Positions 15,335-33,670 are shown, counted from the first letter of the stretch. The stretch: DNA of 64,000 nt from an uncultured beta proteobacterium (GCA_963739745.1 CAVUCJ010000010.1:35983-99982), one strand, 5' to 3'. Translations and numbers: made by a program. Notes: generated by a model not told the origin, from the sequence alone.

Positions 15335-15747
15335 GCAGTTCTCCTGAAGGTTGAGTCGTTGCGGGACGGGGCCCCGTCAGCCGTTGGTCGCATGTCTTCG
15401 CGCCTTCGTGCGCAATGCCATCGCCTCGCTGGCAGCCAGGAACCTCGTTCGTGGAATGGCGACGCGTTCGAAGGACGCGATGCGCAACCACCCGCGCATG
15501 ATCGCAAAGGTGCAAAGATCCGCATGTCGGATTTCACGGATTTCATCGTAGGACACCATCCACTATTCACCCCATCATCGCCGCGGACATCGGATCGACG
15601 TCTTACGTCGAAGTCGTTCGGACGGAGGCTGCGGGCATCGCGCGCCACCCGCGATCATGCGACCGGGCGGGAACAGTGGGCGAGGCCCGTGCAGTCGGCC
15701 CGACGCAAGCTGCGCGGAGCCGCCAACGTCGCGCAGGTAGGAACGTG

Positions 15748-16230
15748 ATGCCGCAATGGTGGTTGGAGATCGTGTCCACCGTCCGCGACGAATTGTCGGA
15801 CGTTGCCGACCTTTCGGAGTTCACCCGTATCGTCTTCCGGCTGACCGTTGCAGTCGTTCTTGGTGCGGCAATCGGATACGACCGCGAGCGTCATGAGCGC
15901 CCCGCGGGCCTGCGCACCCATATGCTCGTCGCTTTGGGCGCCGCGACGTTCGTCCTCGTTCCCGTTCTTTCCGGTCACTCGCCCGATCAGATGGGCCGAA
16001 TCATCCAAGGCATCATTGCTGGCATCGGCTTCCTGGGTGCGGGAACCATTCTCAAGCTCGATTCGCGGCAGAAGGTGCGCGGGCTGACGACCGCCGCCAG
16101 CATATGGGCGACCGCGTCGATCGCCGTAGCGGTGGGGCTGGGCCACCTGGTGATGGCGATGCTGGCGACGGCGCTTGCGCTGGTGGTCCTCGCGGTCCTG
16201 CCATATCTCGAGTCAAGGAAGTATCCATAG
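15748..16230 (+). CDS. MgtC/SapB family membrane protein
   Basis: IGYDRE...PAGLRTHMLV, GIGFLGAGTI and GLTTAASIW motifs. Confidence 0.9.
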   Translation: MPQWWLEIVSTVRDELSDVADLSEFTRIVFRLTVAVVLGAAIGYDRERHERPAGLRTHMLVALGAATFVLVPVLSGHSPDQMGRIIQGIIAGIGFLGAGTILKLDSRQKVRGLTTAASIWATASIAVAVGLGHLVMAMLATALALVVLAVLPYLESRKYP

Positions 16231-16286
16231 GCGCCGCCGATCGGGCGGATCGCCGCCACCTTGGAGGCGGATCGTCCATCGCCGTT

Positions 16287-16559
16287 TCAGGACATGCGCG
16301 TAACGAAATCCGCAAGACCGAGACCGACGAGCAGCGACAGCCACAGCAACCCGGCAACCGCGGCAATCCGGACGACTGTCGCACTTCGTCCGATGCGCAT
16401 AAACACGAGCAGGACGAGCGCCGCCTTGACGCCGGCGATGCCGAAATTGCTGACGGGATTCGCCAAGCCCATGTCGACCAGGGAGCTTGCCGCGGACAGC
16501 GCCAGCAGTGCCAGCAGCGCGAGCCACGTCAGCAGCAAGTTACGAAGTGCAGGTTTCAT
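16287..16559 (-). CDS. Cytochrome c oxidase subunit IV (caa3 type)
   Basis: Three TM helices, IAGVKAALVLLVFM; ATGA overlap with subunit III. Confidence 0.8.
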   Translation of the reverse strand: MKPALRNLLLTWLALLALLALSAASSLVDMGLANPVSNFGIAGVKAALVLLVFMRIGRSATVVRIAAVAGLLWLSLLVGLGLADFVTRMS

Positions 16560-17221
16560 GAGCGGGCGATGAGGTAGAGGCTGGGATAGAGAAAGATCCA
16601 CACGATATCCACGTAATGCCAGTAGAGTCCCGCCATCTCGATCGAGGTCGGCGTCTGCACAGCGAAGCCGCGGTGCGCTAGCCGTGCGCCGAAGAACCCG
16701 ATGAGCAGGATGCCGATCGACACATGCACGGCATGGAAGCCGGTCATGACGAAATACAGCCAGAAGAAGAGCTCCGCTCCCTGCCGGTACTGGGCGGGAG
16801 CAAACTGGAAATCGAGGGATGGCACGAGGTGGTCGACGTAATCGGCCCGATACTCGAAGCCCTTGATCGCCAGGAAGACCAGACCGAGCGACACGGTCGC
16901 GGCCATGTAGACTGCGGCGACGCGGCGCATCCGCAGGCCCGTTGCCCTGACGGAAAGCGCCATCATCAGGCTGCTGGTAAGCAGGACGGCGGTATTGGCC
17001 GTTCCTAAAACTAGGTCGGTGTGCCGGCCGGCGGCGGCAAAGGCGTCGGGAAAGCGCAGGCGGGCAACCAGATAGGCGAAGAAGAGCACTCCGAAGAACA
17101 ACGTTTCGCTCGTCAGGAATACCCACATGCCGAGGTCGGAGGCCGCGTGAGCCTGCCGCGGGTCCGAGAACGGTTCGGACGCAGGAACTTCCGGCGAGGT
17201 GGGTAGTGCCTGCGCCATCAT
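16556..17221 (-). CDS. ctaE: Cytochrome c oxidase subunit III
   Basis: GMWVFLTSETLFF, MTGFHAVHV and GLYWHYVD motifs. Confidence 0.92.
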   Translation of the reverse strand: MMAQALPTSPEVPASEPFSDPRQAHAASDLGMWVFLTSETLFFGVLFFAYLVARLRFPDAFAAAGRHTDLVLGTANTAVLLTSSLMMALSVRATGLRMRRVAAVYMAATVSLGLVFLAIKGFEYRADYVDHLVPSLDFQFAPAQYRQGAELFFWLYFVMTGFHAVHVSIGILLIGFFGARLAHRGFAVQTPTSIEMAGLYWHYVDIVWIFLYPSLYLIARS

Positions 17222-18852
17222 CAGGCCTTGGATTGGTGGCCTTCACTGCGCGGTGCCGGCAACGGGTAGGCATAGGGTTCTTCCGTCACCTGCGGCGCGC
17301 GCTCGAAATTTTCCACCGGCGGCGGCGAGGCTGTCGTCCATTCGAGACCCGTCGCCCGCCAAGGGTTGGCCGGCGCGCGCAGTCCCCAGCGCAGCGACCA
17401 GCCGAGGTAGCAAAGCGGTAGTAAGTAGCCTATCGCCAGGATCACTGCGCCGGCAGACGAGAAGTCATGCAGCATCTGGAATTCGGGAGCGTACTCGTAA
17501 TAGCGCCGAGGCATGCCGGCCATGCCAAGCAGGTACTGCGGGAAGAAGGTGAAATTGAAGCCGAGGAACAGGAGCACCGCGGCGAACTGCGCCCACTTCT
17601 CCGGATACAGGCGCCCGGTGATTTTCGGCCACCAGAAGTGAATGCCGCCGATATAGGCCGATACCGAGCCGCCGACCATGATGTAATGGAAATGGGCGAC
17701 GACGAAGTAGGTGTCGGTGAGTTGCACGTCCAGCGCAAGCGCCGCCAGAAATAGCCCGCTCATGCCGCCGAACATGAACAGTCCGATGAATCCCAACGCG
17801 TAGAGCATAGGTGCCTCGAACGAAATCGTTCCCTTGTACAACGTCGCGGTCCAGTTGAACACCTTGATCGCCGAAGGAATCGCTACGATGAAGCTCAGCA
17901 GTGAGAAGATCATGCCCGAATAGAGCGACTGCCCCGATACGAACATGTGATGCCCCCACACCAGGAAGCCGATCACGGCGATCGCGATAATCGCGTAGGC
18001 CATCGAGCGATAGCCGAACACCGTGTTGCGCGTGAAGCACGCGAGAATCTCGCTGACGATGCCCATCGCCGGGAGGATCATGATGTAGACGGCGGGGTGC
18101 GAGTAGAACCAGAAGAGATGCTGGAAGAGCAACGGGTCGCCACCGAGCGCCGGGTCGAAGATCCCGACGTGAAGAAGGCGTTCGATCGCGAGTAGCGTCA
18201 GCGTCATCGCCAGCACCGGCGTGGCCAGCACCAGGATGATGCTCGTCGCGTAGTGCGCCCAGACGAAGAGCGGCAAACGGAACCAGGTCATGCCCGGCGC
18301 GCGCAGCTTGTGAACGGTGACTATGAAGTTAAGTCCGGTGAGTATCGACGAGAAGCCGGCGATGAAGACGCCGGTGATCACCGCGATCACATGTGTGTTC
18401 GAGAACATCGTCGAGAACGGCGTGTAGAAGGTCCAGCCGGTATCGACCCCGCCGAGAAAGAGCGCGCCGAGTGTGAAGGTGCCTCCCGCGACATAGAGGT
18501 ACCAGCTCGCCAGGTTCAGGCGCGGGAACGCGAGATCGCGCGCACCGATCATCAGCGGAATGAGGAAATTGCCCAGCGTCGCCGGAATCGACGGAATGAG
18601 GAAGAACCAGACCATGATCACGCCGTGCATGGTGAAAAGCTTGTTGTAGGTCTCGGCCGAGACCAGGTCCCCGGCGGGCGTGGCGAGCTCGATGCGGATC
18701 AGCGCGGCCGCTACGCCTCCGACGAAGAAGAAGGCGGTAATCGAAATTGCATACAGAATCGCGATGCGCTTGTGGTCGTGGGTCGAAAGCCACGACCACA
18801 GCGTTGTCCCGGCGGCAAGGTAGTTGGTGCGCTCGCGTGCGGCGTTTATCAT
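17221..18852 (-). CDS. ctaD: Cytochrome c oxidase subunit I, type A2
   Basis: [10 protein letters not shown] (YS motif of A2 enzymes), WGHHM and AHFHY heme/CuB ligands. Confidence 0.95.
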
Positions 18853-19805
18853 CGTGACCCCGGCTTCTGCGCGCTGAGGTTGCGGATATAGGCGAGGAGA
18901 TCGAGTAGATCGTCCTCGGAAATCTGCCCGGCGAACGACGGCATGATTGGCGCGTATCCGGCCGCCACTTCGCGGGCGGGCAGCAGGATCGAATCGCGGA
19001 TGTAACGGTCGTCCGCGACCACCATTTGTCCGTTGCTCAGCGGCACCGGCCGCCCGTAGAGGCCTTCGAGCGAGGGCGCATGGACCGCGGCGTTGCGCCC
19101 GTGGCAGCCGCTGCATCCGAACTGGCGGAACAGCGCCTCGCCGCGCGCGGCCATCGTCGAGCCTGAATCGTTCCGGTCGAGCCAGCGCTGGAACTCGACC
19201 GGACTCTGGACGACGATCCGGCCGGACATGCGCGAATGGTCGGTTCCGCAGTACTCGGCGCAGAACAAGTGAAAGACGCCGGTGCGCGTGGCGGTGAACC
19301 ACAGCACCGTGTAGCGACCGGGAAGGACGTCCTGCTTCAGACGAAACGCCGGGACGAAGAAGCTGTGGATGACGTCCTGCGAAGTCATTACCAGCTTGAC
19401 TGGCACGTCCACCGGGACATGCAGTTCGTTGATCTCGCGCTGGCCGCCCGCATGCTGCAGCTTCCACATCCACTGCTTGGCCACCACCGAGATCTCGAGC
19501 GCGTTGTCCGGCGGCAGCGCCTGGTCGAAATACAGCGCGGCGGCCCAAACGAACACGACGATGAACAGCACCATCGGAACCGCGATCCACGTCAGTTCGA
19601 TCCGACGGCGCCGCCGCAACCGCACCCGCTCCGGCGCGCGCTCGCGGTTGACGTCGGCGTTTTTTCGGTAGCGCAGCGAGAACACGATCAGCAGGACGAT
19701 GATCACCAGCGCGACCGTTCCGGTCAGCAGCGTCATCGCCGCGAACAGCAGGTCGACGCGCCCCGCGAGCGCGGATGCCGGTTCGGGAACGAAGGGCAGC
19801 TTCAT
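18849..19805 (-). CDS. ctaC: Cytochrome c oxidase subunit II with fused cytochrome c (caa3)
   Basis: DVIHSF and [12 protein letters not shown] (CuA), plus C-terminal CSGCH heme site. Confidence 0.93.
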
Positions 19806-20611
19806 GGCCGGGATCGCGGCGATCGCCGCCGGCGCTGCACGATGACGACGAGGCCCAGGAGCGCCACGGCCGTGCAGAGGCCCACGGCCCGCGCGGCGGT
19901 TTCGACGGTCGCCGAAAACCGGCCGGTCGCGGGATCGTAGTGCAGGCAGAGCAGCAGCAGCGATCGAATCGGCGCGGCAATGCGGCCGGCGCCGGCGTCG
20001 ACGATGCCTTGGCGCAGCGCGTCGGGAGGGAAATCGACGCCGAAGAAATAGCGGGCGACGCTGCCCTCGGGCGTCACGATGACTATCCCGGCCGGATGGG
20101 CGAATTGACGTTGCACGGGGTCGAACGCGTAGCGGAATCCGACCGTGTCCGTGAGGCGGGCGATGGCGCCTTCGCCGCCCGACAGGAAATGCCAACCGCG
20201 GACCGGCGCCGGCCGAGGAGGCGTGTCCGGCGGCGCGCGCTGCGCTTGGCGCGCCATTATGGCTTCGCGGTCGCGGGGATCGATGCTGACGGCGAGAACA
20301 TCGTAATCCTCGCCCGCTGTCAGGTCGATCGCGCGCAGGCTGGCGGTCAGCGACTCGCGGACGGCGCTGCACAGATTCGGGCACTGGTTGTACCCCAACA
20401 GCAGCACGACCGGCCGGAGCCCGAAGTACGACGACAGCGGCGCGCTCGCTCCACCCTCGTCGATGAAGCGCGTGGCAAGTGGCAGCTTGGCGTCGAGGTG
20501 CTGGTCGAAGCCTACCCGCGTGAGTTCCGTTGGCGCCTGTCCAACGGCGAGCGCCAGCAGCGGGATGAACGCGAGCGCACCGGCGCCAAGATGCATGCGG
20601 TGCGCGTTCAT
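19802..20611 (-). CDS. SCO family copper chaperone
   Basis: YNQCPNLC motif, FAHPAG and C-terminal LCLHYDP..G; 4-nt overlaps on both sides. Confidence 0.85.
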
Positions 20612-20994
20612 TGGCCGCCCGCTCGGTTTTCGACCTCGACCAGGCGCCGCATCGCCCGGTCGATCGGGATGCGGATCACGCCCGCCGTCCGGTCGAGCCA
20701 ACGGTACTCGTCCAGCAGGCGGCGCTTCTCGGTCCGAAGCGCTTGCAGGTTCTCGGCGGGCCGCGGTTCGAGCGCCGGGCCTGTGACCGCCGGAGGGCGC
20801 TGCGCCTGCGGTCGCGCCGGACCGCGGTCGAGCCAGTCGACCAGCCCGCGACCCAGCCACGCCGACGCGAGGCCGACCAGGATCAGCGCCGCCACGAGAC
20901 CCAGCGCCGCGATCGTCAGGCGCGTCGCGTCGACGGCGTCGGCCTGGTAGCCGCGCGCGCCGCGCGCCGTCGGGGTCGGATCGGGGTCAGCCAT
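20608..20994 (-). CDS. ActG-like small single-TM subunit of the ACIII cluster
   Basis: One TM helix plus YRWLDRTAGVIRIPIDRAM; lies between actF and SCO. Confidence 0.6.
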   Translation of the reverse strand: MADPDPTPTARGARGYQADAVDATRLTIAALGLVAALILVGLASAWLGRGLVDWLDRGPARPQAQRPPAVTGPALEPRPAENLQALRTEKRRLLDEYRWLDRTAGVIRIPIDRAMRRLVEVENRAGGQ

Positions 20995-22138
20995 GATTGA
21001 CGGTCTCGGCCAGGCCCACGCGTGCGGCGCTCGGGGATTCGTCCAGTCGATACAGCAGCGCGCAGCTCCACAATCCTCCGATGGCGAGGAACGCGGCGGC
21101 ATCCGTCCACTGCAGCCAGAATAGGTCGACGCGCAACGCAGGGACGACCAGCCACAGCAACTCCCCCCCGTGCGCGACGAGCACGACCACGCACAGCCAC
21201 GCCAACCGCCGCGGATCGCGCTTGAACGAGCGAAGCAGCATCGCGCCGAAGGGCAGCACGAATTGCAGCGCGAACACGCCGACGGCCAGCCAGCGCCAAG
21301 GCGGCGCTGCGCGCACGACGTACCAGCCGATTTCCGACGGCAGGTCTTCCGCCCAGATGATCAGGAACTGGGTGAACGCCAGGTAGGCCCAGGTCATCAC
21401 GAACATCAGCAGCAGGTTGCCCAGGTCCTGCGCGTTGCGAGCCTCGTTCGCGCCGCGACCGGGCAGGCCGCCTCCGAACACGGTCGCCGCGACCGCGAAC
21501 GCGAATGCCGACAATGCCTGCAGCACCATGAACAGCAGGCCGAACACGCTCGAGTACCAGTGCGCGGAAAGCGACATGATCCAATCGACCGCCGCGAGGG
21601 TTGCGGTCACCGCATAGACTAGAAGGCCGAGTGCCGACAGGACACGCAGCGCCGGTACGGGCGGCGACGCGGCGTTGGTGCTGCGGTTGCGCCAATGGCG
21701 GCGCAGCGCGTAACCGATCGCGATCCATGCCGCAAAATAGACCAGCGCACGCAGCGTGAAGCCCGGGATGTTCAGGTACCAGAGCCTGCCCGCGAGGATG
21801 GGGTCGCCGGTGGCACCGGCGGTTGCCCATGGATACAGATGTGAGAGGCCGAACACGACGGGGATGCCCAGCACGGCGAGCGCCGGCAACGTGCCGATCG
21901 CAGCTTCGAGCGGCGGGCGGATCGCAAAGCCCCAGGTTCCGCCGGTCAATTCGTGGATCATGACGTTGACCATCGCGCCCAGCGCGATGCCGAGAAAGAA
22001 AAGCCAGGCCACCAGCCACGAGGCAAGCAATCGCGGCGCGTCGAACCACCAGGCCAGCGCGCAGGCGACGACTCCGGCGACGCCCGCGAAAAGCGCGCGC
22101 TTTCGCAGCCGAGCAGCGGTTGCGGCGAGCGCGGTCAT
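20987..22138 (-). CDS. actF: Alternative complex III subunit ActF
   Basis: Multi-TM; TLAAVDWIMSL..HWYSSVFG and GNLLLMFVMTWAYLAFTQFLIIW motifs. Confidence 0.85.
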   Translation of the reverse strand: MTALAATAARLRKRALFAGVAGVVACALAWWFDAPRLLASWLVAWLFFLGIALGAMVNVMIHELTGGTWGFAIRPPLEAAIGTLPALAVLGIPVVFGLSHLYPWATAGATGDPILAGRLWYLNIPGFTLRALVYFAAWIAIGYALRRHWRNRSTNAASPPVPALRVLSALGLLVYAVTATLAAVDWIMSLSAHWYSSVFGLLFMVLQALSAFAFAVAATVFGGGLPGRGANEARNAQDLGNLLLMFVMTWAYLAFTQFLIIWAEDLPSEIGWYVVRAAPPWRWLAVGVFALQFVLPFGAMLLRSFKRDPRRLAWLCVVVLVAHGGELLWLVVPALRVDLFWLQWTDAAAFLAIGGLWSCALLYRLDESPSAARVGLAETVNHG

Positions 22139-22842
22139 CGCTGCGCCTGCAGCGTGCGCCGGACTTCGGGCGGCGCGTCGGACAGGCTCGCATGCTGGCT
22201 CAACTGCAACGCGCGGATATACGCGACGATGGCACGCCGGTCGCCGGGTGGCACGCGATCGGCATACGGGTACATCGCGCCGTAGCCGTGCGTGATGACC
22301 GCATGGTAATGCGCGTCGGGTGCGTCGCGAAGCCGGTCGACGTGAAAGGACGGCGGATGCGGAAACCCGCGGCGCGCGACCATGCCGTCTCCGTCGCCGG
22401 CTTCGCTGTGGCAGGGCGCGCAGAAGATGTCGTAACGTTCGCGTCCACGCTCGAGCAACGCCAGCGTCCAGGTGCGGCGCTCCAGGGGGTCCGGGCCGGG
22501 GCGCGAAGCAGCGCCGTCGCGGGCGACCGCCGGGACCGGCCAGGGTGTTTCCGGCGCGACGGCCACCCGCCCGAGGCGCCCGCTCGAAGTCCCGGCAAGC
22601 GTTCCCTCGCCGTGCGGAACGGTGCCGGCCACCGGCGGCCGCGACGCGCGACCGTCGGCCCACAGTGCGCTCCTGGCAAGCGGCTTGTACTTCGGCTGGT
22701 CGTACATGTTCTCGAATGTCTTCTCGCAGCCGGCCAGCAATACCGTTGCCACGAGGCATGCCGCAGCCCAGAGCCACGGACGCGCTGGGACATGGGCGCC
22801 GCGGCGCGGCCGCGGGTCCGATCGGGCGCGCGATCGCGACAT
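22135..22842 (-). CDS. actE: ACIII monoheme lipoprotein ActE
   Basis: LAGC lipobox, MYDQPK, CAPCH and GYGAMYPY motifs. Confidence 0.85.
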   Translation of the reverse strand: MSRSRARSDPRPRRGAHVPARPWLWAAACLVATVLLAGCEKTFENMYDQPKYKPLARSALWADGRASRPPVAGTVPHGEGTLAGTSSGRLGRVAVAPETPWPVPAVARDGAASRPGPDPLERRTWTLALLERGRERYDIFCAPCHSEAGDGDGMVARRGFPHPPSFHVDRLRDAPDAHYHAVITHGYGAMYPYADRVPPGDRRAIVAYIRALQLSQHASLSDAPPEVRRTLQAQR

Positions 22843-22846
22843 GGGC

Positions 22847-23386
22847 TTACCCGCCGACCCGCGACACGCGGACGGGGCCCAGCGCCCGCAGGAAGTCCTC
22901 GACGCGCTCCGGCGCAAAGGCGGATCCGGTGGCGCGTACGCACAGGAAAAAGCGGCTGCGCGACGCAAGGTCGAAGTCGGGAGCATCGAACAGCGGATGA
23001 TTCAGGCGCGGCAAGCCCGACAGAACAAGGAAGCCGACGAACGCTGCGAGCGCCGCGCCGAGCACCGTGAGCTCGAAGGTGCCGGGAATGAATGAAGGCC
23101 AGCTGTGCAGCGGCCTGCCGCCCGAATTGATCGGGTAGTCGACGACCGCGCTGTACCATTGCATGAAATACGCGCCGACGCCTCCGCCAATTCCCCCCAG
23201 GAGCGTGAGCAGCGGCACGCGGTTGGCGGTGAACCCGATGGCTTCCGGCAGCCCTTCGATCGAGAACGGGGCATACGCTTCGAGGTCGCGATACGACACC
23301 TCGCGGCAGCGGGCGATGGCGTCGAGCAGCGCGGCGGGCGAAGCAAACTCCGCCAGGATCCCGTAGAGTTTGGTCGCCTCAGGCAT
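22847..23386 (-). CDS. actD: ACIII subunit ActD (DUF3341)
   Basis: YGILAEF, YPINSGGRP..SWPSFIP.TFELTVL motifs. Confidence 0.88.
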   Translation of the reverse strand: MPEATKLYGILAEFASPAALLDAIARCREVSYRDLEAYAPFSIEGLPEAIGFTANRVPLLTLLGGIGGGVGAYFMQWYSAVVDYPINSGGRPLHSWPSFIPGTFELTVLGAALAAFVGFLVLSGLPRLNHPLFDAPDFDLASRSRFFLCVRATGSAFAPERVEDFLRALGPVRVSRVGG

Positions 23387-24743
23387 GCGCGGGCGTCCTT
23401 TCTCGCGCGAGCTTGCGCATCTCCGCGATGGAGATCGCTGGCAACACGCGCAGGAACACCAGGAACAGCAGCGCAAAAAAGCCGATCGAACCCGCGAGGA
23501 TGGCGAAGTCCCAGAAGGTCGGGTAGTACATGTGCCAGGACGACGGCAGGAAATCGCGGTTTAAGCTCGACACGATGATCATGAAGCGTTCGAGCCACAT
23601 ACCGATGTTGACCACGATCGAGATGGCGAACAGCGAGGGCGCGCTGGCGCGCACACGTGCCGACCACAGTGCCTGCGGCACGATCACGTTGCACAGCACG
23701 ACCGACCAGTAGATCGGCGCGTAGGGCCCGCGCATCCGGTTCAGCGCGTTCGCGATCTCGAACTGGTCGGCGCTGTAGAACGCCATGAAGATCTCGGTCG
23801 CGTAGCTGTAGGCGACGATCAGGCCGCAGACGAGCATCAGTTTCCCGATGTTGTCCAGATGGCGGGCGGTGATGAAGCTCTTCAGGCCGAACACGGCGCG
23901 CAGCGGTACCGCGATCGTGAGCGCCATCGCGAACCCGGAGAAGAGCGCACCGGCCACGAAGTACGGGGGGAAGATGGTCGAGTGCCAGCCGGGCGTGTTG
24001 CCGATCGAGAAATCCAATGACACGACGCTGTGCACCGAGATCACCAGCGGTGTGGCGAGGCCTGCCATCAGCAGGTAGGCCGTGTCGAAGCGATGCCATT
24101 GCCGCGCCTCGCCTCGCCAGCCGAGCGCGAGCAGTCCGTAGGCGACTTGCTTCCATCGCTTGTGCGCCGAGTCGCGCAGCGTGGCGAGGTCGGGGATCAG
24201 GCCCATGTACCAGAACAGGATCGAGACGATGATGTAGGTGCCGATGGCGAAGATGTCCCACACCAGCGGGCTTCGCCACTGAGGCCACAGATTCATGATG
24301 TTCGGATACGGGATCAGCCAGTAGAAGAACCACGGCCGCCCGAGGTGCAGGATCGGCATGAGCCCGGCCATTGCGACGGCGAAGATCGTCATTGCTTCGG
24401 CGAAACGGTTGATCGACGTGCGCCATCGTTGCCGCAGCAGCAGCAGAAATGCGGAGATGAAGGTGCCGGCATGGCCGATGCCCACCCACCACACGAAGTT
24501 GGTGAGCGCGAAAGCCCAGGCCACCGGCTGGTTGACGCCCCAGATCCCCACGCCCATGACGAAGAGGTAGCTGGTCGCGACCACGAACAGCAGCGTGAGC
24601 GCCCCGGCAACGGCCATGCCGATGAACCATCCCCAATGTGCCGGTCGGGTGAGGACGATATCCGCGATCTTGTCGGTGATCGCAGCATCGCTGTACTGCC
24701 CGACGAGTACCGGGGTGGCGGCGAGCGAGGCTTCAGTGGTCAC
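23379..24743 (-). CDS. actC: ACIII quinol-binding subunit ActC (NrfD family)
   Basis: NFVWWVGIGHAGTFISA, SINRFAEAMT and HSVVSLDF motifs. Confidence 0.93.
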   Translation of the reverse strand: MTTEASLAATPVLVGQYSDAAITDKIADIVLTRPAHWGWFIGMAVAGALTLLFVVATSYLFVMGVGIWGVNQPVAWAFALTNFVWWVGIGHAGTFISAFLLLLRQRWRTSINRFAEAMTIFAVAMAGLMPILHLGRPWFFYWLIPYPNIMNLWPQWRSPLVWDIFAIGTYIIVSILFWYMGLIPDLATLRDSAHKRWKQVAYGLLALGWRGEARQWHRFDTAYLLMAGLATPLVISVHSVVSLDFSIGNTPGWHSTIFPPYFVAGALFSGFAMALTIAVPLRAVFGLKSFITARHLDNIGKLMLVCGLIVAYSYATEIFMAFYSADQFEIANALNRMRGPYAPIYWSVVLCNVIVPQALWSARVRASAPSLFAISIVVNIGMWLERFMIIVSSLNRDFLPSSWHMYYPTFWDFAILAGSIGFFALLFLVFLRVLPAISIAEMRKLARERTPAHA

Positions 24744-24797
24744 CGGCGTCTCCGCGTGCGCGCGGCAGGCACTTCGTCGTGCATCGTCCGGTGCGCA

Positions 24798-27740
24798 TCA
24801 TGTCGGATCGACGCTGGACGCCGGGTTGCTGATCTTCGGCAGATACGTGGTGCGCGGCCGGGTGTTGAGTTCGGCCAGCAGCGTGTAGTCAAGGGGTGAT
24901 GACTTGCGCGCGTTGACCTCGCTGGCGGGATCGTTGAGGTCGCCGAACACGATCGCCCGGGTCGGACATGCGGCCTGGCACGCGGTGACGACCTCGCCGT
25001 CGGCGATGCGCCGGTCTTCCCGGTCGGCATTCACCCGCGCATTGGCAATTCGCTGGATGCAATACGAGCACTTCTCCATGACGCCGCGCATGCGCACCGT
25101 TACTTCCGGATTGCGCTGTGCGGCGAGGATCGGCAAATCCCGCGTGTAGCTCAGGAAATTGAAGCGGCGCACCTTGTACGGGCAGTTGTTCGAGCAGAAC
25201 CGCGTACCCACGCAACGGTTGTAGACCTGGACGTTCAGGCCTTCGGCGTCGTGGATCGACGCCTCGACCGGGCACACTTCCTCGCACGGCGCGTGCTCGC
25301 ACTGCATGCAGGGTACGGGCTGGAAGAACGTGCGCGGCCGCTCGCGGCTGCCGGCGAAGTAGCGATCGACACGGATCCAGTGCATCTCGCGCCCGCGCCG
25401 CACCTCGTCCTTGCCGACCACCGGTATGTTGTTCTCCGCCTGACAGGCGATCGTGCAGACGCCGCAGCCAATGCAGCTCGACAGGTCGATGCTCATTCCC
25501 CACCGGTAGCCGTCGTAGGCGAACCCCGGGTAGAGACTATCCTTGGGGTCTTCGCCATGCGCGGGTCGGCAGGCCGAAGCGAGACAACGCGCCGCATCGT
25601 CGCGCGTGAGCGTGCGCACCAGGTCGCGGCCCTCCATGCGGTGGTGCGTCTGGGCCGCGGCGAGCGGATGACGCGCGCCGGTCCTCTCGACCGTCACGCC
25701 AGCGATCCACGGTTGCGCGGAATCCCGCAGCGAATAGGCGTCGACGCCCACACCGTTGCCCACGCCGCCGGCGCGCGTGCGGCCGTGGCCCAGGTGGAGC
25801 GTGACCGAGTCGTCCGCATGTCCCGGCATGATCCACGCCGGCGCGTCGAGTTGGCGGCTCCCGCAGGTCAATCTGACGACGTCTTCACTTTCGATCGACA
25901 GGCGCGCTGCGAATGCAGGAGACACCAGCGCCACATTGTCCCAGGTCAGCGTCGTGAGCGGTTTCGGCAGTTCCTGCAGCCAAGCGTTGTTCGCGTATCG
26001 GCCGTCCCCCAGCGTCGGGTCGGCCGCAAAGACCAACTCGGTGCGGGGTGGCACGAGCGGCGCGACTTGGGCTGCGCTATCCGCGGATTCGCGCGCGCGC
26101 AGGTTCTGCGGTCTCGACGCCGCGGGCGATGCTTCGATGCGGCCACGCGACAGCGCCTCGCGCCAGAACGCTTCGAAGTCCAGCCCTCGTTGCCCTCGCC
26201 AGTGGTCGCGGACGACGTCGTATGCCGCTCGCGGCGTACCTTCCAGGATCGCCGAAAGGATCTCGCTGGCCGACTTTCCGTCGTACAACGGCGCAATGCA
26301 CGGTTGTTGAATGGAGATCGTGCCATCGTAGGCGCTGACGTCGCCCCACGCTTCGAGCGCATGCGCCGCCGGAAGCTGCCAGTCGCAGCGAAATGACGTT
26401 TCGTCGTCGTACAGACTGACGTGCGCCTTCCAGGGCACCCGCAGGAGCGCGGCGCCGAAATCGAAGTCGGCGGGTGCGTCGTAGACCGGGTTGCCTCCGA
26501 GGATCAGCAGCGTGCTCGCCTCGTCGGCGTTCATGGCGTCGACCAGTGCGCGCAACGACCCGAGCTGGCTCGACGGGTCGAAGGCGACCGGCGCACGCAG
26601 CTCGAAGGTCGCACCGACGTTGCCCAGCGCGGCGTTGATCCGGTGGACGAGCGCGTGCACTCGTGCCGGCTGGCGATCACCGGCGATCACCAACGAAGCG
26701 CCCGGCCTGCTTGCCAGATCGGAGACCGCTGCGTCGAGCCAGGCGTCGGATTCCGGTGCGGCGACGCCCGGCTGCGGTCCGAGAATGCGCCGCGCGAGCC
26801 GCTCGGTCAGCACCCCGATGTCGGACGATCGTACGACGCGCTTATGGTCTGCGAGCGCGCCGGCAAGGCTCGGTGTGCCCTCGGCGACGTAGAGCCGGTT
26901 CATGCGGGCCGGGTTGCCGGCGCGGCGTGTGTCCGCAAAATCGTGCGCATAGCGCACGCATCCGGGCAGCGTACCGACAAAGTCCGCGTCGAGCGCGACG
27001 ACGACACTGGCGGCGCCGAAATCGTAGACCGGCTCCAGCGCTTCGCCATACGCAACGCGGCTTCCGGCGTACACGTGGTCGCGGTTGAGCGGCTGGTACT
27101 GGTGCCATCGCGCACCCGGATAACGGGCGAGGATGGCGCGCAGCTGTCGATGCAGCGTCGGCGAGGTGATCGTTTCCGTCAAGATGAAGAGTCCGCGGCC
27201 ATCCGGCGCGGCGCGCAGCCTCTTCTGCAGCTCTGCCGTGAATCGATCCCATGAGGCGATCGACCGGTGGCGAAGGACGTGGCGCGAGCGGTCGGGGTCC
27301 CACAGATCGAGGACGGCGGCCTGCGCGAAGATGTCAGTCGCGCCGAGGCTCGCCGGATGTAGCGGGTTGCCCTCGATCTTGGTCGGCCGCCCCATGTTGG
27401 TTTCCACCAGCACGCCGACGCCGTATCCGTCGCGGCTCACCGTCGTCGCGAAGTACACGGGCGTACCGTAAGTCGATTCCGCGGGGCCCGACCGGTAGGG
27501 CACGATCTGCTCGAGCGGCGCGCGCGTGCATCCGCCGCTTCCCGCCAGCGCCAGTGATGCGCCCATGCACTTCAGGAAATCGCGCCGCTGCCACGACACA
27601 TCGGCGGTGGCTTGGGACGCCGATCGACCGGCCGCCCCCGGGTCGAATTCGTCCAGCCCGCGCCAGAAGTGCGCGTACGCGGCTTCGCGGTCGCCGACGC
27701 GGATGGACGAAAGATCGTTGGATGGAGGTTTCTGGCTCAT
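24798..27740 (-). CDS. actB: ACIII subunit ActB (molybdopterin-oxidoreductase-like domain plus Fe-S domain)
   Basis: Tat signal QRRDFLK; CIGCGVCTIAC, CMQC...CEEVCP, CVGTRFCSNNCP and CSYC...CQAACP motifs. Confidence 0.93.
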   Translation of the reverse strand: MSQKPPSNDLSSIRVGDREAAYAHFWRGLDEFDPGAAGRSASQATADVSWQRRDFLKCMGASLALAGSGGCTRAPLEQIVPYRSGPAESTYGTPVYFATTVSRDGYGVGVLVETNMGRPTKIEGNPLHPASLGATDIFAQAAVLDLWDPDRSRHVLRHRSIASWDRFTAELQKRLRAAPDGRGLFILTETITSPTLHRQLRAILARYPGARWHQYQPLNRDHVYAGSRVAYGEALEPVYDFGAASVVVALDADFVGTLPGCVRYAHDFADTRRAGNPARMNRLYVAEGTPSLAGALADHKRVVRSSDIGVLTERLARRILGPQPGVAAPESDAWLDAAVSDLASRPGASLVIAGDRQPARVHALVHRINAALGNVGATFELRAPVAFDPSSQLGSLRALVDAMNADEASTLLILGGNPVYDAPADFDFGAALLRVPWKAHVSLYDDETSFRCDWQLPAAHALEAWGDVSAYDGTISIQQPCIAPLYDGKSASEILSAILEGTPRAAYDVVRDHWRGQRGLDFEAFWREALSRGRIEASPAASRPQNLRARESADSAAQVAPLVPPRTELVFAADPTLGDGRYANNAWLQELPKPLTTLTWDNVALVSPAFAARLSIESEDVVRLTCGSRQLDAPAWIMPGHADDSVTLHLGHGRTRAGGVGNGVGVDAYSLRDSAQPWIAGVTVERTGARHPLAAAQTHHRMEGRDLVRTLTRDDAARCLASACRPAHGEDPKDSLYPGFAYDGYRWGMSIDLSSCIGCGVCTIACQAENNIPVVGKDEVRRGREMHWIRVDRYFAGSRERPRTFFQPVPCMQCEHAPCEEVCPVEASIHDAEGLNVQVYNRCVGTRFCSNNCPYKVRRFNFLSYTRDLPILAAQRNPEVTVRMRGVMEKCSYCIQRIANARVNADREDRRIADGEVVTACQAACPTRAIVFGDLNDPASEVNARKSSPLDYTLLAELNTRPRTTYLPKISNPASSVDPT

Positions 27741-27743
27741 GGC

Positions 27744-28397
27744 TTATCGATGGCACGTCGAGCACATCGTGAGGTGCCAACGCGAACGAATCCGGTAGCT
27801 GCGCTTGAGCGCGAGGCCGGCAGCTGCCTGGTCAACCGGCGGCCGCCAATCCATGTCGAAGACGCGGTCGACCGGGCGCAGGTACTTTTCCGGTTCGCGG
27901 TGGCACTCGAGGCACCACTGCATGTCGAGCGATTCCACCCGCCAGGTCAACGGCATCGTATCGACTCGGCCGTGGCAGGTCGAGCAGCCCACTCCCTTGC
28001 GGACATGAATGCTGTGATCGAAGTAGACGAAATCCGGAAGGTCGTGCACGCGTTGCCAGGCCAGTGCTTCGCCACCGTCGTAGGCCACGATCAATGGGCG
28101 CAGCGGCGGCGCGTCGGTGAAGAGCTGCGAATGACAGGTCATGCAGGTGGACAACGGCGGGATGCCGGCGAAGCGCGAGGTCTCGACCGAAACATGGCAA
28201 TAGCGGCAGTCGATGCCGTCATCGCCAACGTGATGCTTGTGGCTGAACGGCACGGCCTGTCCGACCGGGGAGCCGATCGCTGCATCCGAACGGGCGTTCA
28301 CGCGATAGGTGACGATGCCCATGGCGAACAGCGCAATCGCGCTGATCGCTACGAGCCGCAGTACCAGCGTGAATCGTTGCGAGAACACCTGTGCCAC
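27744..28397 (-). CDS. actA: ACIII pentaheme cytochrome ActA
   Basis: Five CxxCH motifs (CRYCH, CMTCH, CSTCH, CLECH, CSTCH); GTG start assumed. Confidence 0.9.
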   Translation of the reverse strand: MAQVFSQRFTLVLRLVAISAIALFAMGIVTYRVNARSDAAIGSPVGQAVPFSHKHHVGDDGIDCRYCHVSVETSRFAGIPPLSTCMTCHSQLFTDAPPLRPLIVAYDGGEALAWQRVHDLPDFVYFDHSIHVRKGVGCSTCHGRVDTMPLTWRVESLDMQWCLECHREPEKYLRPVDRVFDMDWRPPVDQAAAGLALKRSYRIRSRWHLTMCSTCHR

Positions 28398-28481
28398 GAT
28401 GTTGGTCTCCGCCGTCGGCGCCGAGCAAACCGGTGCGCCCGGCCTTCGCGCGAGTCTGCCGCGGGGCACGGCCCGCGGCGC

Positions 28482-29738
28482 TCATTGCAGTTTTGCGTAT
28501 TCGATCGCGCGCCGGACTTTTTCGACGTCGCCTGCGGCGACGGGCGGTGCGACGTTTCCCCAGGCGTTGCGAATGTAGGTGGCGACTTCGGCGATCTCCG
28601 TGTCGGTGAGCTTCCAGGCGAAGGCGGGCATCCCGAGCGCGGCGACTTTGGCCTGCGTCGAGGGCATGCGCGCGCCATCGAGAAGCACCTGCAGGACCGA
28701 CGTGGCGTCGTCCGCCTGAACGGGCTGACTCCCGCGCAGCCGCGGAAACACGCCCGGGATGCCGGCGCCGTCCTTGCGATGACATCCCGCGCAGTCATCG
28801 ACGTAGATGGCCTCGCCGTGCGTCATGGCCGAGGACATAGGCGGCGCAGGCGAGCCGCCCGCCGCTGCTTTTGCGCCCGGGAGCGCTTTCAGATAGACGG
28901 CGATGGCCTGCAAGTCGGTGTCGGTCAGGTAATGCGTTGATTGGGCGACGACCTCGGCCATCGGTCCCCCCGCGGCGGCGTGGGTGTTCGACCCGGTCTT
29001 CAGGTATTCGACGATGTCGGCGTTCGACCACGTGCCCAGTCCCGCCCGCTGATCGGGACCCAGGTCCGACGCAAACCATCCTTCCGCGTGGCCGCCGTCG
29101 AATGCCTCGTCGCGTTCGGGCGCGCCGGCCAGGTTGTGCGGCGTGTGACAGGCGGCGCAGTGCCCGGCGCCTTCGACCAGGTAGGCGCCGCGGTTCCAGA
29201 GGTCGCCCTTGGCCGGATCGCCGGCCAAGCTTCCGCGACGAAAGAACATGGCGTTCCACAATCCCATCACCGGACGCCAGCTGAGCGGCCAGGGAAGGCG
29301 CGGCTCCCGGTTCGGGCGGTACACGGGGTCGAGCGTTTGCAGGTAAGCGTGAATGGAGTCGACGTCCTCATGCGAAAGGTGCGTGAACCACAGATAGGGA
29401 AATGCCGGATACAGCCAGCGACCGCCCGGTGCTACGCCCTCGTGCATCGCGCGATAGAAATCCGCATCGCTCCATTGGCCGATGCCGGTGGTTGGATCGG
29501 TCGTGATGTTGGTCGAATAGAGGGTTCCGAACGGCGTGGGTATCGGCCTGCCGCCGGCGAACGGCGTGTCGCCCTCCGCGGTGTGACACGACTCGCAATC
29601 CCCGGCGCGCACCAGGTATTGGCCGCGCGCGACCTGCGCGTGCGAGTACGGCTGGGGCACCGGTCCGGCCGCGCTCGCGCTGGCGAGCATCATCGCGATG
29701 GCGGCGACGAACGCATGGCGATGGGCGGGCAGGTGCAT
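28482..29738 (-). CDS. Triheme cytochrome c subunit of a gluconate-2-dehydrogenase-like enzyme
   Basis: Signal peptide, RGQYLVRAGDCESCH, CAACH and CAGCH. Confidence 0.88.
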   Translation of the reverse strand: MHLPAHRHAFVAAIAMMLASASAAGPVPQPYSHAQVARGQYLVRAGDCESCHTAEGDTPFAGGRPIPTPFGTLYSTNITTDPTTGIGQWSDADFYRAMHEGVAPGGRWLYPAFPYLWFTHLSHEDVDSIHAYLQTLDPVYRPNREPRLPWPLSWRPVMGLWNAMFFRRGSLAGDPAKGDLWNRGAYLVEGAGHCAACHTPHNLAGAPERDEAFDGGHAEGWFASDLGPDQRAGLGTWSNADIVEYLKTGSNTHAAAGGPMAEVVAQSTHYLTDTDLQAIAVYLKALPGAKAAAGGSPAPPMSSAMTHGEAIYVDDCAGCHRKDGAGIPGVFPRLRGSQPVQADDATSVLQVLLDGARMPSTQAKVAALGMPAFAWKLTDTEIAEVATYIRNAWGNVAPPVAAGDVEKVRRAIEYAKLQ

Positions 29739-29743
29739 CCTGG

Positions 29744-31507
29744 CTACACCGTCACCAGCGGGCCTGGCTGCTTGAAATACCGGTCCCGGATCGCTTCGGC
29801 GGCCCAGAACGCCAGCGCCCCCACGGTGCCCGTGGGGTTGTACCCAGGGTTCTGCGGAAACACGCTGGCGCCCATCACGAACAGGTTTGGAACGTCCCAG
29901 CTCTGCAGGTACCGGTTCACGGCGCTGGTTCGCGGATCGGCTCCCATCACCGAGCCGCCGGTGTTGTGCGTGGTCTGGTAGGGCTCGATCGAATAGTGGC
30001 CGGTGCGCTGATTGACCTTCAGCGAGCGGGGCTTCATCGCGCGCGCGATCGCTTCTGCCTTCTGCGTGAGAAAACGCGACATCGCGTGCTCGTTTTCCTG
30101 GAAGTCGAACGTCATTCGCAGCAGCGGATTGCCGTAAACGTCGCGATAAGTGGGATCGAGGTCGAGGTAATTCTGGCGGAAGCTCATCACGCTGCCGTGG
30201 GTAGCGATGCTCGCGCTGCGCAGGTAATTTTCGGCCATCGCCTTCTTCCAGCCGGAACCCCACTTCGGTGTGCCTTCCGGCACATGGTGCTGGAGGATCG
30301 GGCGTCCGCCGGTTGTCCACAGCGCCAGATATCCGCCGCCGATGAACCCGTGCGGACCATGGTCGAAATTGTCACCGTTGAAATCGTCGACCCCTTGGCC
30401 CAGCGCGCCGGCACCCATGAACGGATTCAGGATGTCGTTGACGAAAACCTCGACCGACGAAGTGATCTGGTACGCGTAATTGCGGCCGATCACGCCGTTG
30501 CCCGAGGCCGGATCGTAGGGCCTGCCGATTCCCGACACGAGCAGCAGGTGGACGTTGTGCTGCGAATACGCGCAACTGACAACCAGCTCGGCCGGTTGGA
30601 AGAACTCGCGGCCCTGCGCGTCGACGTAGGTGACCCCCGTGGCCCGCTTGCCGGTGCTGTCGAGGTTGATCCGCGTGACGTCGCAATTCGAGCGGTACGA
30701 AAAATTGGGACTGCGCAGCAGCACCGGAAAGATCGTGGTTTGCGGGCTGGCCTTCGAATAGTTGCCGCAGCCGAACCACTCGCAGTACCCGCAATACGTG
30801 CATTGACCCATTTGCACGCCGAGCGGGTTCTTGTACGGCTGCGACGTGTTGGCGGCCGGGCAGGGGAACGGATGCATGCCGGCGTCGCGTGCGGCGCGGT
30901 CGAAGAGATTCGTGGCATGGCTGCGCTTGAGCGGAGGCAACGGATAGTCGCGGCTGCGATCGCCTTCGAACGGATTGCCTCCCTCCTGCGGCTTGCCCGC
31001 AAGCTTGCCCGCCTTGCCCGAGACGCCGCACAGATACTCGAACCGGTCGTAATGCCGTTCGAGCTCCTCGTAGCTGACGCCCCAGTCCTGGATGGTCATG
31101 TCCGAAGGGATGAAGCGCTTCCCGTAGCGTTCCTCGATATGGCTTCGCAGGCGCAAGTCCGACGGAAGAAAACGCCAGCACTGACCGTTCCAGTGCACCC
31201 CGGCACCCCCCGCGCCGGAAGCGGGGCGGAACGATCCCAGCTTGCGCATTGGCAGCGCCTTCTGGTTGCTCGTATTGCGAAACGTCAGCGTCTCGCGCTC
31301 CGGCTCCTCGAACAGTCCGTTGCGCACGGCGTAACGAAGCTCGTCCTGGATGTGCGTCGTCGCGAAGTCAGGGTTGGTGTCGCGGAATCCGCCGCGTTCG
31401 AGGGCGAGCACCTGGTGGCCCGATTGGGCAAGTTCGTGACCGACGATCGCCGCGGTCCAGCCGAATCCGATCAGCACGACCTCGACCTCGGGCAGTACGG
31501 TGGCCAT
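29744..31507 (-). CDS. GMC flavoprotein subunit (gluconate 2-dehydrogenase-like)
   Basis: IGFGWTA FAD-binding loop, CTYCGYCEWFGC and YQTTHNTGG motifs. Confidence 0.9.
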   Translation of the reverse strand: MATVLPEVEVVLIGFGWTAAIVGHELAQSGHQVLALERGGFRDTNPDFATTHIQDELRYAVRNGLFEEPERETLTFRNTSNQKALPMRKLGSFRPASGAGGAGVHWNGQCWRFLPSDLRLRSHIEERYGKRFIPSDMTIQDWGVSYEELERHYDRFEYLCGVSGKAGKLAGKPQEGGNPFEGDRSRDYPLPPLKRSHATNLFDRAARDAGMHPFPCPAANTSQPYKNPLGVQMGQCTYCGYCEWFGCGNYSKASPQTTIFPVLLRSPNFSYRSNCDVTRINLDSTGKRATGVTYVDAQGREFFQPAELVVSCAYSQHNVHLLLVSGIGRPYDPASGNGVIGRNYAYQITSSVEVFVNDILNPFMGAGALGQGVDDFNGDNFDHGPHGFIGGGYLALWTTGGRPILQHHVPEGTPKWGSGWKKAMAENYLRSASIATHGSVMSFRQNYLDLDPTYRDVYGNPLLRMTFDFQENEHAMSRFLTQKAEAIARAMKPRSLKVNQRTGHYSIEPYQTTHNTGGSVMGADPRTSAVNRYLQSWDVPNLFVMGASVFPQNPGYNPTGTVGALAFWAAEAIRDRYFKQPGPLVTV

Positions 31508-32226
31508 CAGCTTTCCGCCGCGAGCTTACGGCCGTCGCGGCCGAGGATTCCGACGGGCGGGAGCGCATAGCGCCTGTTGTATTGCTCGATCTCCGCCACA
31601 TAGTCGTAGCGCGGACCGGGAAAGCCGATCATGTTCCAGCCGATGAAATCGCGGTTGCCGCCGTACATCGGATCCGCAAGAAAGCCTTCGACCGTGTTCT
31701 GCAATAGCATCTCGAACCACGTCTTCGCCGGTGCGCTCGCCAGCTCGACTTCGCCGCTCTCGAGACCGGCAAGCACCTTGTCCTGCGCGCCGGCGGCGAG
31801 ATCGGAAAAGCGCTTGCTCTGTTGCGTCGATGCGCAATAGGCGTCGAGCTCCCGAATGGCCGTGCGATAGAGCTGTGCCGGCGTGAGCTTCAGCTGATAG
31901 CCCTGCTCGTCGGTACCCTCGGGCCATGGCCCCTGCAAGTACCAGGTCTCGGCGCGTCCGTAGGGGCCAGCAAGTTGGTGGTCGATGAACACGGTTACCG
32001 CGGCTTCCCTGGCGCCGGGGCCGAGATCGTCGGCAGGAATCAGCCGGGAGACCGCGGCGTCGATGCAACGCCACTCCGACTCAGTGAAAAACAGGCGGGC
32101 GGGAGTGGCGTCGGCGGCAGAGCCAGCGACGTCGGCGGAGTCACGTACCTTGGCGCAACCGGCGACCCACTGAACCGGGACAGCAGAAGCGGCAATGGTC
32201 AACAGTCGCCGGCGACGGGAATCCAT
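31507..32226 (-). CDS. Gluconate 2-dehydrogenase subunit 3 (gamma)-like protein
   Basis: Twin-Arg signal SRRRRLL; SRLIP.DDLGPGA and EGFLADPMYGGNRD motifs. Confidence 0.88.
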   Translation of the reverse strand: MDSRRRRLLTIAASAVPVQWVAGCAKVRDSADVAGSAADATPARLFFTESEWRCIDAAVSRLIPADDLGPGAREAAVTVFIDHQLAGPYGRAETWYLQGPWPEGTDEQGYQLKLTPAQLYRTAIRELDAYCASTQQSKRFSDLAAGAQDKVLAGLESGEVELASAPAKTWFEMLLQNTVEGFLADPMYGGNRDFIGWNMIGFPGPRYDYVAEIEQYNRRYALPPVGILGRDGRKLAAES

Positions 32227-32238
32227 GGATGCGATTGA

Positions 32239-32254
32239 GCATCTGTCGTGCCAG
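32239..32254 (-). promoter_or_regulatory. sigma54 promoter CTGGCACGACAGATGC
   Basis: Near-consensus TGGCACG-N4-(A)TGC; predicted +1 near 32227, beside the ATG at 32226. Confidence 0.7.
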
Positions 32255-32371
32255 CCGAAATCCCGCGACGGCAAATCCGGTGGCTGCCGCTCTTGCCACG
32301 GCGTCGACGCTCGATTGCCGCGGTGCCTGCATAAGCTTTCTCGAACTGAATGACAGCGCTCGCGAGACACC

Positions 32372-32446
32372 CGCCGCCCCAGCGAAAGCGGGGACCCAGC
32401 GTTGTTCGTGCAAAGCCTTCGGCCTCCCACTCTCGCGGGGATGACG
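32372..32446. repeat. Degenerate REP/dRS3-like palindromic element
   Basis: GCGAAAGCGGGGACCCAG ... CCCACTCTCGCGGGGATGACG, two imperfect nested palindromes. Confidence 0.5.
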
Positions 32447-32669
32447 CAGTCAACGCATGCCCTTCGGCCATGATGATTTGCCCGTGACATTGTCGCTGGC
32501 GGCGCATTGCGTATGCGCGAATTCGGGCGGGTTTTTCCCGAATCGTTGCATTTCATGCCATCGTCGTAGGACGACGGCCGACACGCCCTTGCAACGATGG
32601 CCTACAGCGAACGTGCCGTGCGGGCACGCCACTGCCGCTGCCGCGAAGTTCAACAATGGTGCGGCGAGG

Positions 32670-33356: not shown

Positions 33357-33417
33357 GGCTTGAGGCCGCGCGCCGTGGCCACCAACACGACGCCGGAGCG
33401 CACGGGCGCTGGTACCT

Positions 33418-33591
33418 TCAGATTACAAGCACACCAAGGAAGACGCCAAAGATCAGGACGATCAGGAAGACAACGATCGCGATGAAGAACAGGACCTTGG
33501 CGATGGTTCGCGTGCCCGACGCGACACCGGTGAAGCCGAACAGGCCGGCCACCACGGAGATGATGAAAAATATGATTGCCCACTTGATCAT
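33418..33591 (-). CDS. DUF1328 small membrane protein (57 aa)
   Basis: [37 protein letters not shown]; too short for the ORF track. Confidence 0.85.
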
Positions 33592-33641
33592 ATCGAACTC
33601 CCTGACGGTTTTGGCTCGGTCAGCGTAGCACCTTTGTGCGT

Positions 33642-33670
33642 ACGCCGGCGCTTAGCGGAGGCGCCGGCGT
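33642..33670. terminator. 10-bp GC hairpin after the CDF gene
   Basis: ACGCCGGCGC-N9-GCGCCGGCGT; no U-tract. Confidence 0.3.

Follow-up and report, generated by a model that had tools for sequence, protein, structure and literature searches.

A GMC-type dehydrogenase triad encoded in line with an alternative complex III–caa3 oxidase superoperon, and its recurrence beside oxidase genes in soil proteobacteria

The genes of primary dehydrogenases normally lie away from those of respiratory complexes III and IV, and the enzymes use one quinone pool in common. To our knowledge, the characterized operons of the gluconate dehydrogenase (GADH) and fructose dehydrogenase (FDH) type follow this rule, none of them being joined to genes of complex III or IV. 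Here, we analyzed a 64,000-nucleotide (nt) stretch of soil-metagenome DNA from an uncultured beta proteobacterium (GCA_963739745.1, CAVUCJ010000010.1:35983-99982; hereafter the window), in which a three-gene dehydrogenase of this general type (hereafter the triad) is found directly in front of the genes for alternative complex III (ACIII) and an A2-type caa3 cytochrome c oxidase. The clade to which this dehydrogenase belongs, delimited at flavoprotein identities of at least 70%, is habitually encoded beside cytochrome c oxidases.

Each of the two parts of this locus has described counterparts. An “ACIII–A2 caa3 superoperon” has been described in Acidobacteria (PMC8407424), and ACIII genes followed by oxidase genes, with a documented supercomplex of the two products, are known from Rhodothermus marinus (PMC5928083). 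A preliminary description of the window, made from the sequence alone, had taken it as established that ACIII can form supercomplexes with aa3/caa3 oxidases, in agreement with these reports. As for the triad, a small “hitchhiker” subunit exported by the twin-arginine translocation (Tat) pathway defines the family of GADH, FDH and glucose dehydrogenases that depend on flavin adenine dinucleotide (FAD) (PMC6719666). Full-text literature searches returned no report pairing ACIII with gluconate 2-dehydrogenase or with GMC triads, and the only co-mentions of ACIII and GMC proteins that were found concern unrelated gene clusters in Methylacidiphilum.

The cluster extends from position 16287 to position 32226 and comprises 15 co-oriented minus-strand genes, every one of them delimited by a single start and a single stop codon. 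Gene identities were assigned from Pfam, NCBIfam and PDB structure matches; they bear out the identities and order given in the preliminary description, as the measured junctions do its tight packing and, exactly, its largest gaps of 84 and 54 base pairs. In transcription order these junctions amount to -1, 5, 84, 3, 54, -8, 4, -4, -8, -4, -4, -4, -1 and -4 nt, nine of the 14 being overlaps. Two modules make up the region, the triad (module 1) and the 12 genes from actA to coxIV (module 2). Its closest relatives by ActB, at 55–65% identity, come from metagenome-assembled genomes of uncultured beta/gamma-proteobacteria and of Burkholderiales, and its gene order recurs in four independent assemblies (L001, L004, L033 and L084). 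No contig spanning the junction between the cytochrome c gene and actA was present in independent short-read data, where contigs are fragments of 150–500 nt.

The preliminary description had proposed a survey of how often the triad is linked to act–cox genes, and the linkage was examined here from both sides. On the ACIII side, a scan for ActB in species-representative genomes yielded 80 loci, onto which the 15 proteins of the window were mapped. Only six of the 56 loci with at least 4 kb of upstream sequence have a triad in reach of ACIII. In three of them (L004, L033 and L067) it immediately precedes actA in the same orientation, in L041 it is divergent, and in L034 and L070 it lies after the cox genes, convergent in the former and co-directional in the latter. 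On the flavoprotein side, neighborhood look-ups were combined with a metagenome scan of 80 loci. The tandem order, with the triad directly upstream of actA and co-directional, was found in L001, L004, L033, L067, L084, L094, L095, L099, L106, L109, L114 and L117.

Within the clade of at least 70% flavoprotein identity, a heme-copper oxidase cluster adjoins the triad in 23 of the 40 informative loci. Nine of these have the triad in tandem with a following actA (type A), two have act–cox upstream and co-directional, the triad lying behind cox (type B), four are divergent (type C), and eight show the order triad–diheme cytochrome c–pyrroloquinoline quinone (PQQ) dehydrogenase–cytochrome c–COX2-COX1-COX3 with no ACIII (type D). 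Unlinked triads account for three loci with two long flanks and 14 loci with one informative flank, while another 15 loci, whose flanks are too short to judge, stand outside the 40. In the neighboring clade of 60–69% identity, by comparison, none of 25 informative loci is oxidase-linked. A neighbor-joining tree of the flavoproteins placed the linked types interspersed with unlinked members, and the idea that linked triads form one clade was rejected accordingly. From this contrast between the two clades, the several arrangements and the interspersed tree, we conclude that the triad–oxidase neighborhood is real, clade-restricted, selected, and repeatedly kept or re-formed, without being bound to one gene order.

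The reading that we favor for the window, at a probability of roughly 0.55, is a quinone route combined with read-through transcription. The small subunit, by virtue of its Tat signal, would carry the FAD/Fe-S subunit across the membrane, and electrons would move within the triad from the substrate to FAD, then to an Fe-S cluster and on to three c hemes. The triheme cytochrome would reduce ubiquinone and ACIII would oxidize the resulting quinol, the hemes of ActA and ActE passing electrons to the cytochrome c domain that oxidase subunit II carries, and from there to CuA, heme a, the a3-CuB center and finally O2. A regulated promoter ahead of the small-subunit gene, perhaps of the sigma-54 type, would drive all 15 genes as a single long transcript. 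The whole would thus form an inducible branch leading from an alcohol, sugar or sugar-acid substrate through ubiquinone, ACIII and caa3 to O2. Read-through of all 15 genes is probable because the triad immediately precedes actA, shares its orientation and is separated from it by only 84 nt. The ubiquinone step is proposed because the membrane-bound dehydrogenase complexes with homologous cytochrome c subunits reduce ubiquinone, as is known from work on acetic acid bacteria and Pseudomonas. A number of observations weigh against this reading; some bear on transcription and others on the path of the electrons, and they are given below with the alternatives to which they relate.

Regarding transcription, the cluster might consist of two independent neighboring units, with the triad operon ending at 28482 and the act–cox genes having their own promoter in the 84-nt spacer (28398..28481, minus strand); the dehydrogenase would then feed the common quinone pool, and the neighborhood would be a product of island structure or common regulation and no dedicated chain. 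Among proteobacterial relatives that lack the triad, the gene before actA is a different one each time (Ysc84, a thiamine pyrophosphate enzyme, a formate/nitrite transporter, CcmH, a hydrolase or a permease). Such unrelated upstream genes imply that actA normally heads its own unit, as it does in about 50 of the 56 ACIII loci, and make an internal actA promoter likely. The modules also occur in non-tandem order, divergent in L041, L104 and L129–131, convergent in L034 and with the triad behind cox in L070, L103 and L105, so that co-transcription of triad and act–cox is not required, and stand-alone triads exist at flavoprotein identities as high as 76–77% (L002, L086 and L087). The equivalent spacer varies from 37 to 950 nt among 12 related tandem loci, the long values of 275–950 nt belonging to L117, L094, L095 and L099. 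Finally, a search of sequencing runs for the window sequence returned four low-coverage soil-metagenome DNA runs and no RNA run.

We nevertheless consider two separate units somewhat unlikely. The neighborhood, in its four arrangements, turns up much more often than expected, and nine of the 14 junctions overlap, as is typical of polycistronic organization. In the closest relatives the spacer is short, at 37–138 nt (37 nt in L084, 44 in L004, 54 in L033 and 103–138 in others), and in the window it contains no terminator-like hairpin, its predicted RNA fold of -41.6 kcal/mol being no more stable than that of shuffled sequences (mean -44.7 kcal/mol, z +0.93). Scans of positions 15500–33500 revealed no sigma-70 promoter-like site, the 84-nt and 54-nt gaps included, and 13 terminator-like sites, a number equal to the shuffle expectation, none of which falls in an intergenic gap; with a genome at 64–69% GC, both scans are uninformative. 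The “single operon” of the preliminary description is not supported as it stands: its genes are tightly packed, and neither a terminator nor a sigma-70 consensus was found at the 84-nt gap, where that description had placed the possible break, but its modules are separable elsewhere and actA is usually a first gene. Our reading is that in this sub-clade transcription likely runs on from the triad into actA and that, given how actA is arranged elsewhere, an internal actA promoter probably persists as well.

The candidate promoter for the long transcript is a sigma-54-like -24/-12 element, TGGCACGACAGATGC (32239..32253, minus strand), which ends 12 nt before the ATG of the small-subunit gene and has one mismatch to TGGCAC-N5-TTGC. 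An element of this kind lies at the identical distance from the small-subunit gene in L001, and matches at 10 or more of the 12 positions occur upstream of that gene in five of 72 related loci, against 0.72 expected. Conversely, the pattern is not above chance over the window as a whole (eight matches found, 5.3 expected), and the position of the element would leave almost no 5' leader, making the mRNA nearly leaderless. A gene for a sigma-54 activator with AAA+ and HTH_8 domains and almost no sensor domain is located 10 kb from the element (42614–43738, plus strand). The FNR/ANR box TTGAT-N4-ATCAA, allowing up to two mismatches, was matched 12 times against 11.9 expected, with no match near the promoter regions.

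Three proteins make up the triad. The small (gamma, or hitchhiker) subunit (31507..32226, 239 amino acids (aa)) matches Pfam Gluconate_2-dh3 at 3.3e-31 and carries a twin-arginine signal, RRRRLL, together with a lipobox-like VAGC that is not conserved among relatives. Lipidation of this subunit was considered as a mark of oxidase-linked triads and rejected, the lipobox being sporadic in linked and unlinked loci alike. The FAD-binding catalytic subunit of the GMC family (29744..31507, 587 aa; Pfam GMC_oxred_N/C) matches the large subunit of FDH (7w2j_A, 4e-21) and the Burkholderia cepacia glucose dehydrogenase (BcGDH; 6a2u_B, 3e-17), and one of its histidines aligns with the region of the flavinylated histidine in FDH. 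A four-cysteine cluster, C-x2-C-x2-C-x4-C (CTYCGYCEWFGC), occupies residues ~236-247, in a loop equivalent to the Fe-S loop. Its spacing resembles that of ferredoxin-type motifs, and the type of cluster may differ from that of the solved enzymes.

The third member, the triheme cytochrome c subunit (28482..29738, 418 aa), has a Sec signal and three CxxCH motifs, and shows strong full-length homology to the cytochrome c subunits of membrane-bound alcohol dehydrogenase (ADH), BcGDH and FDH (8gy2_B, 2.5e-84; 8hdd_B, 2e-77; and 7w2j_C, 2e-74, respectively). In these alignments the query is matched up to residue 410 of its 418, and the matches end at residues 435 of 478, 426 of 482 and 441 of 486 in the respective PDB chains. 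By this comparison of lengths, the C-terminal extension of 43–56 residues found in the solved membrane-bound homologs is missing, and no hydrophobic segment was detected in the protein besides the signal peptide.

The flavoprotein has thousands of homologs at 75–81% identity, which bear the JGI name gluconate 2-dehydrogenase alpha chain. The sugar-acid substrate put forward in the preliminary description is nonetheless unsupported, since it would have to be read from this automated name; no NCBIfam equivalog was matched, the solved relatives are distant (4e-21 for FDH), and acetol and 2-propanol have also been proposed as substrates for members of the broader group of periplasmic two-subunit GMC enzymes (PMC8630023).

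In an alternative reading, quinone has no part. The triheme cytochrome would pass electrons heme to heme to the oxidase, either through the cytochrome domain of subunit II or through ActE/ActA in a supercomplex, possibly with the dehydrogenase docked, and ACIII would be a parallel quinol input. A cytochrome with neither the C-terminal extension nor a membrane segment beyond its signal peptide would suit such a role, for which a precedent is the direct ActE-to-subunit-II electron transfer documented in ACIII–caa3 supercomplexes (PMC5928083). However, the short C-terminus is common to all clade members, linked to an oxidase or not, and so does not set the oxidase-linked ones apart; a distinctive C-terminus in the latter was in fact looked for and rejected, the tail past the third heme motif measuring ~102–105 aa in all types. 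The interspersion of linked and unlinked flavoproteins likewise gives no hint that the enzymes have co-adapted with a docking partner, and fits better with a generic acceptor such as the quinone pool. With the reduction of ubiquinone by characterized homologs counting on the same side, we regard direct transfer as unlikely.

Direct transfer also draws on the eight type D loci (L085, L088, L089, L096, L107, L112, L115 and L120), where the triad is joined to an oxidase and the cluster contains neither ACIII nor any other quinol oxidoreductase. In L085 (positions 9178-20710), the triad is accompanied by a diheme cytochrome c, a PQQ dehydrogenase of 632 aa, a cytochrome c, a COX2 that bears a cytochrome c domain, a COX1 of 650 aa, a COX3 and further small cytochromes. 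This type of cluster looks like a quinone-independent periplasmic oxidation chain. As type D loci are oxidase-linked without ACIII, the element common to all linked arrangements is the cytochrome c oxidase, which suggests the possibility that the oxidase, and not ACIII, is the conserved partner of the triad. A quinone–ACIII route does not explain the linkage in type D, since ACIII is absent there. On the other hand, the additional cytochromes of type D may serve the PQQ dehydrogenase only.

A more ambitious proposal goes further than direct transfer: the dehydrogenase would belong to the ACIII–caa3 supercomplex as its dedicated third partner, or give electrons straight to the oxidase, bypassing the quinone pool, so that a substrate:O2 megacomplex would be produced from one transcript, and type D would follow the same principle in a second version. 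A three-way supercomplex and a bypass of bc1, both put forward in the preliminary description, are unsupported, the former being speculation. We hold the megacomplex to be quite improbable, and retain the quinone route with read-through as the preferred reading of the window.

Module 2 is in itself an already known and widespread superoperon. Of the surveyed ACIII loci, 53 have 8.5 kb or more of sequence downstream of ActB; ActA–F, SCO and CoxII–I–III are all present and in order in 50 of these, most of which also have a gene for a one-helix protein between actF and sco, and coxIV after coxIII. The phyla with ACIII loci include Acidobacteriota, Verrucomicrobiota, Planctomycetota, Binatia, Chloroflexota and proteobacteria.

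In the window, module 2 starts with ActA (27744..28397, 217 aa), a pentaheme cytochrome c with five CxxCH motifs, a match to Pfam cytochrome c7/c3 and an N-terminal transmembrane helix at residue 7. Its start codon is the GTG at 28397, which sets the 84-nt gap and is supported by an N-terminus, (M/V)AQVFS, conserved in relatives. ActB (24798..27740, 980 aa) bears the Tat signal RRDFLK and combines a molybdopterin-like B1 domain with an Fe-S B2 domain, with Fer4 Pfam matches, and its PDB matches are the B chains of ACIII (6lod_B, 2e-292; 6f0k_B, 8e-232; and 8k9e_B). It is followed by ActC (23379..24743, 454 aa), an NrfD-like membrane subunit (Pfam NrfD, 5e-23) whose identity across the 80 ACIII loci ranges from 55 to 82%, and by ActD (22847..23386, 179 aa; Pfam PF11821 ActD, 9e-59). 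ActE (22135..22842, 235 aa) is a monoheme cytochrome c lipoprotein (LLAGC) with one CxxCH and a match to Pfam Cytochrome_CBB3. ActF (20987..22138, 383 aa), the second NrfD-like membrane subunit, was identified from its PDB matches (6f0k_F at 5e-52, with 6lod_F, 8k9e_F and 6btm_F) and has no Pfam match.

The ActG position is occupied by a protein of 128 aa with one transmembrane helix (20608..20994). Position, size and helix agree with its initial labeling as ActG-like, but no match to Pfam, NCBIfam or PDB backs this name. Most of the 80 ACIII loci, from many phyla, keep this protein in the interval from actF to sco, at 25–53% identity; it is thus a widely conserved accessory of the superoperon.

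The oxidase part begins with a SCO1/SenC copper chaperone (19802..20611, 269 aa; CPNLC motif, Pfam SCO1-SenC). Subunit II (18849..19805, 318 aa; Pfam COX2 and Cytochrom_C) combines the CuA site with a fused C-terminal cytochrome c (CSGCH). Subunit I (17221..18852, 543 aa; Pfam COX1, 5.5e-147) finds the caa3 oxidase of Thermus thermophilus as its PDB match (2yev_A, 3.5e-130) and displays YSHPAV at helix VI in place of the D-channel glutamate of A1-type enzymes, so that its designation as A2 type is correct. Subunit III is of the short form (16556..17221, 221 aa; Pfam COX3, 1.7e-15). Subunit IV (16287..16559, 90 aa) has three hydrophobic segments and a COX4_pro score of 25.2 bits, under the cut-off of 28.9; related loci keep its gene in the place behind coxIII.

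Upstream of the small-subunit gene lies a non-coding stretch of 443 nt, followed by genes for a DUF4396 membrane protein and a cation-diffusion facilitator (32670-34712, minus strand), a pair that could be related to metal, perhaps copper, supply. An IS630-like transposase with DDE_3 and helix-turn-helix domains (39171-40313, minus strand), which separates the respiratory cluster from the regulatory genes, may point to local rearrangement. Further out are the sigma-54 activator, two-component genes, a hemerythrin and an Fe/Mn superoxide dismutase. The frame of the latter (60432-61274, minus strand) covers 280 codons from stop to stop and its Pfam domains start at residue 71, which suggests either an N-terminal extension, conceivably an export signal, or a later start codon.

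On the other side of the cluster, an open reading frame downstream of coxIV (15655–16212, minus strand) was judged spurious, having no Pfam match and a low-complexity, charge-rich translation. Beyond it are genes for PRC-barrel proteins (14828-15376, minus strand, and 13607-14494, plus strand). At the far end of the window, a YflT-like stress protein and a short-chain dehydrogenase/reductase (1924–3539) stand just upstream of a non-homologous end-joining pair, Ku (3666–4685) and a full-length LigD (4686–7385), with a type IB topoisomerase next in line (7770–9005), Ku, LigD and topoisomerase all on the plus strand. In L085, too, the triad is flanked by a PRC-barrel gene and by LigD fragments, and this “stress-island” company of the triad may recur. 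The attribute “stress-induced” initially given to the cluster is unsupported, as its basis is the identity of such neighbors (Ku/LigD, PRC-barrel and YflT-like proteins).

A dehydrogenase within an ACIII–oxidase gene block is thus a recurrent feature of one defined soil-proteobacterial clade, where it takes several arrangements, among them some with an oxidase but no ACIII. This offers a natural system in which to ask whether bacteria build dedicated, possibly channeled, branches from substrate to oxygen, and whether GADH-type triheme cytochromes donate to c-type acceptors besides quinone. The linkage also marks a very abundant soil enzyme clade. Should the simple reading of quinone pool and read-through be true, the locus would be a modest extension of a known superoperon.

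Among known systems, the closest to module 2 is the ACIII–A2 caa3 superoperon of R. marinus, Flavobacterium johnsoniae and Acidobacteria (PMC5928083, PMC8407424), which has the same succession of actABCDEF and oxidase genes and the same subunit features. The window differs from it by the three-gene primary dehydrogenase placed in front in the same orientation, a module that neither report mentions. Its host is a ubiquinone-type proteobacterium, probably Burkholderiales-like, as opposed to a menaquinone user.

Module 1 resembles GADH, 2-keto-gluconate dehydrogenase, FDH (7W2J) and the FAD-glucose dehydrogenase of B. cepacia (6A2U/8HDD; PMC6719666) in its Tat small subunit, its GMC FAD subunit with a cysteine cluster and its triheme cytochrome c, as well as in its periplasmic location and its gene order of small subunit, large subunit and cytochrome. 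Its flavoprotein is nevertheless distant from the solved ones and longer (587 versus 544 aa), and its cysteine pattern departs from the 3Fe-4S motif of BcGDH, CC-x4-C-x3-C (PMC6719666). The cytochrome, for its part, is without the C-terminal extension carried by the solved homologs.

Quinoprotein systems for ethanol or methanol oxidation form chains of PQQ alcohol dehydrogenase, cytochrome c and oxidase. Like these, the locus encodes a periplasmic dehydrogenase beside c-type acceptors that feed a cytochrome c oxidase, and its type D relatives combine such a set with the triad; unlike them, the window lacks a PQQ enzyme as well as a free-standing cytochrome c, and has ACIII instead. The bc1–A1 caa3 superoperon of Acidobacteria (PMC8407424) similarly gathers complex III-type and complex IV genes in one co-oriented block, yet with bc1 instead of ACIII, the oxidase upstream and no primary dehydrogenase. 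The new part of the locus described here is hence the extension of a known complex III/IV superoperon by a primary dehydrogenase.

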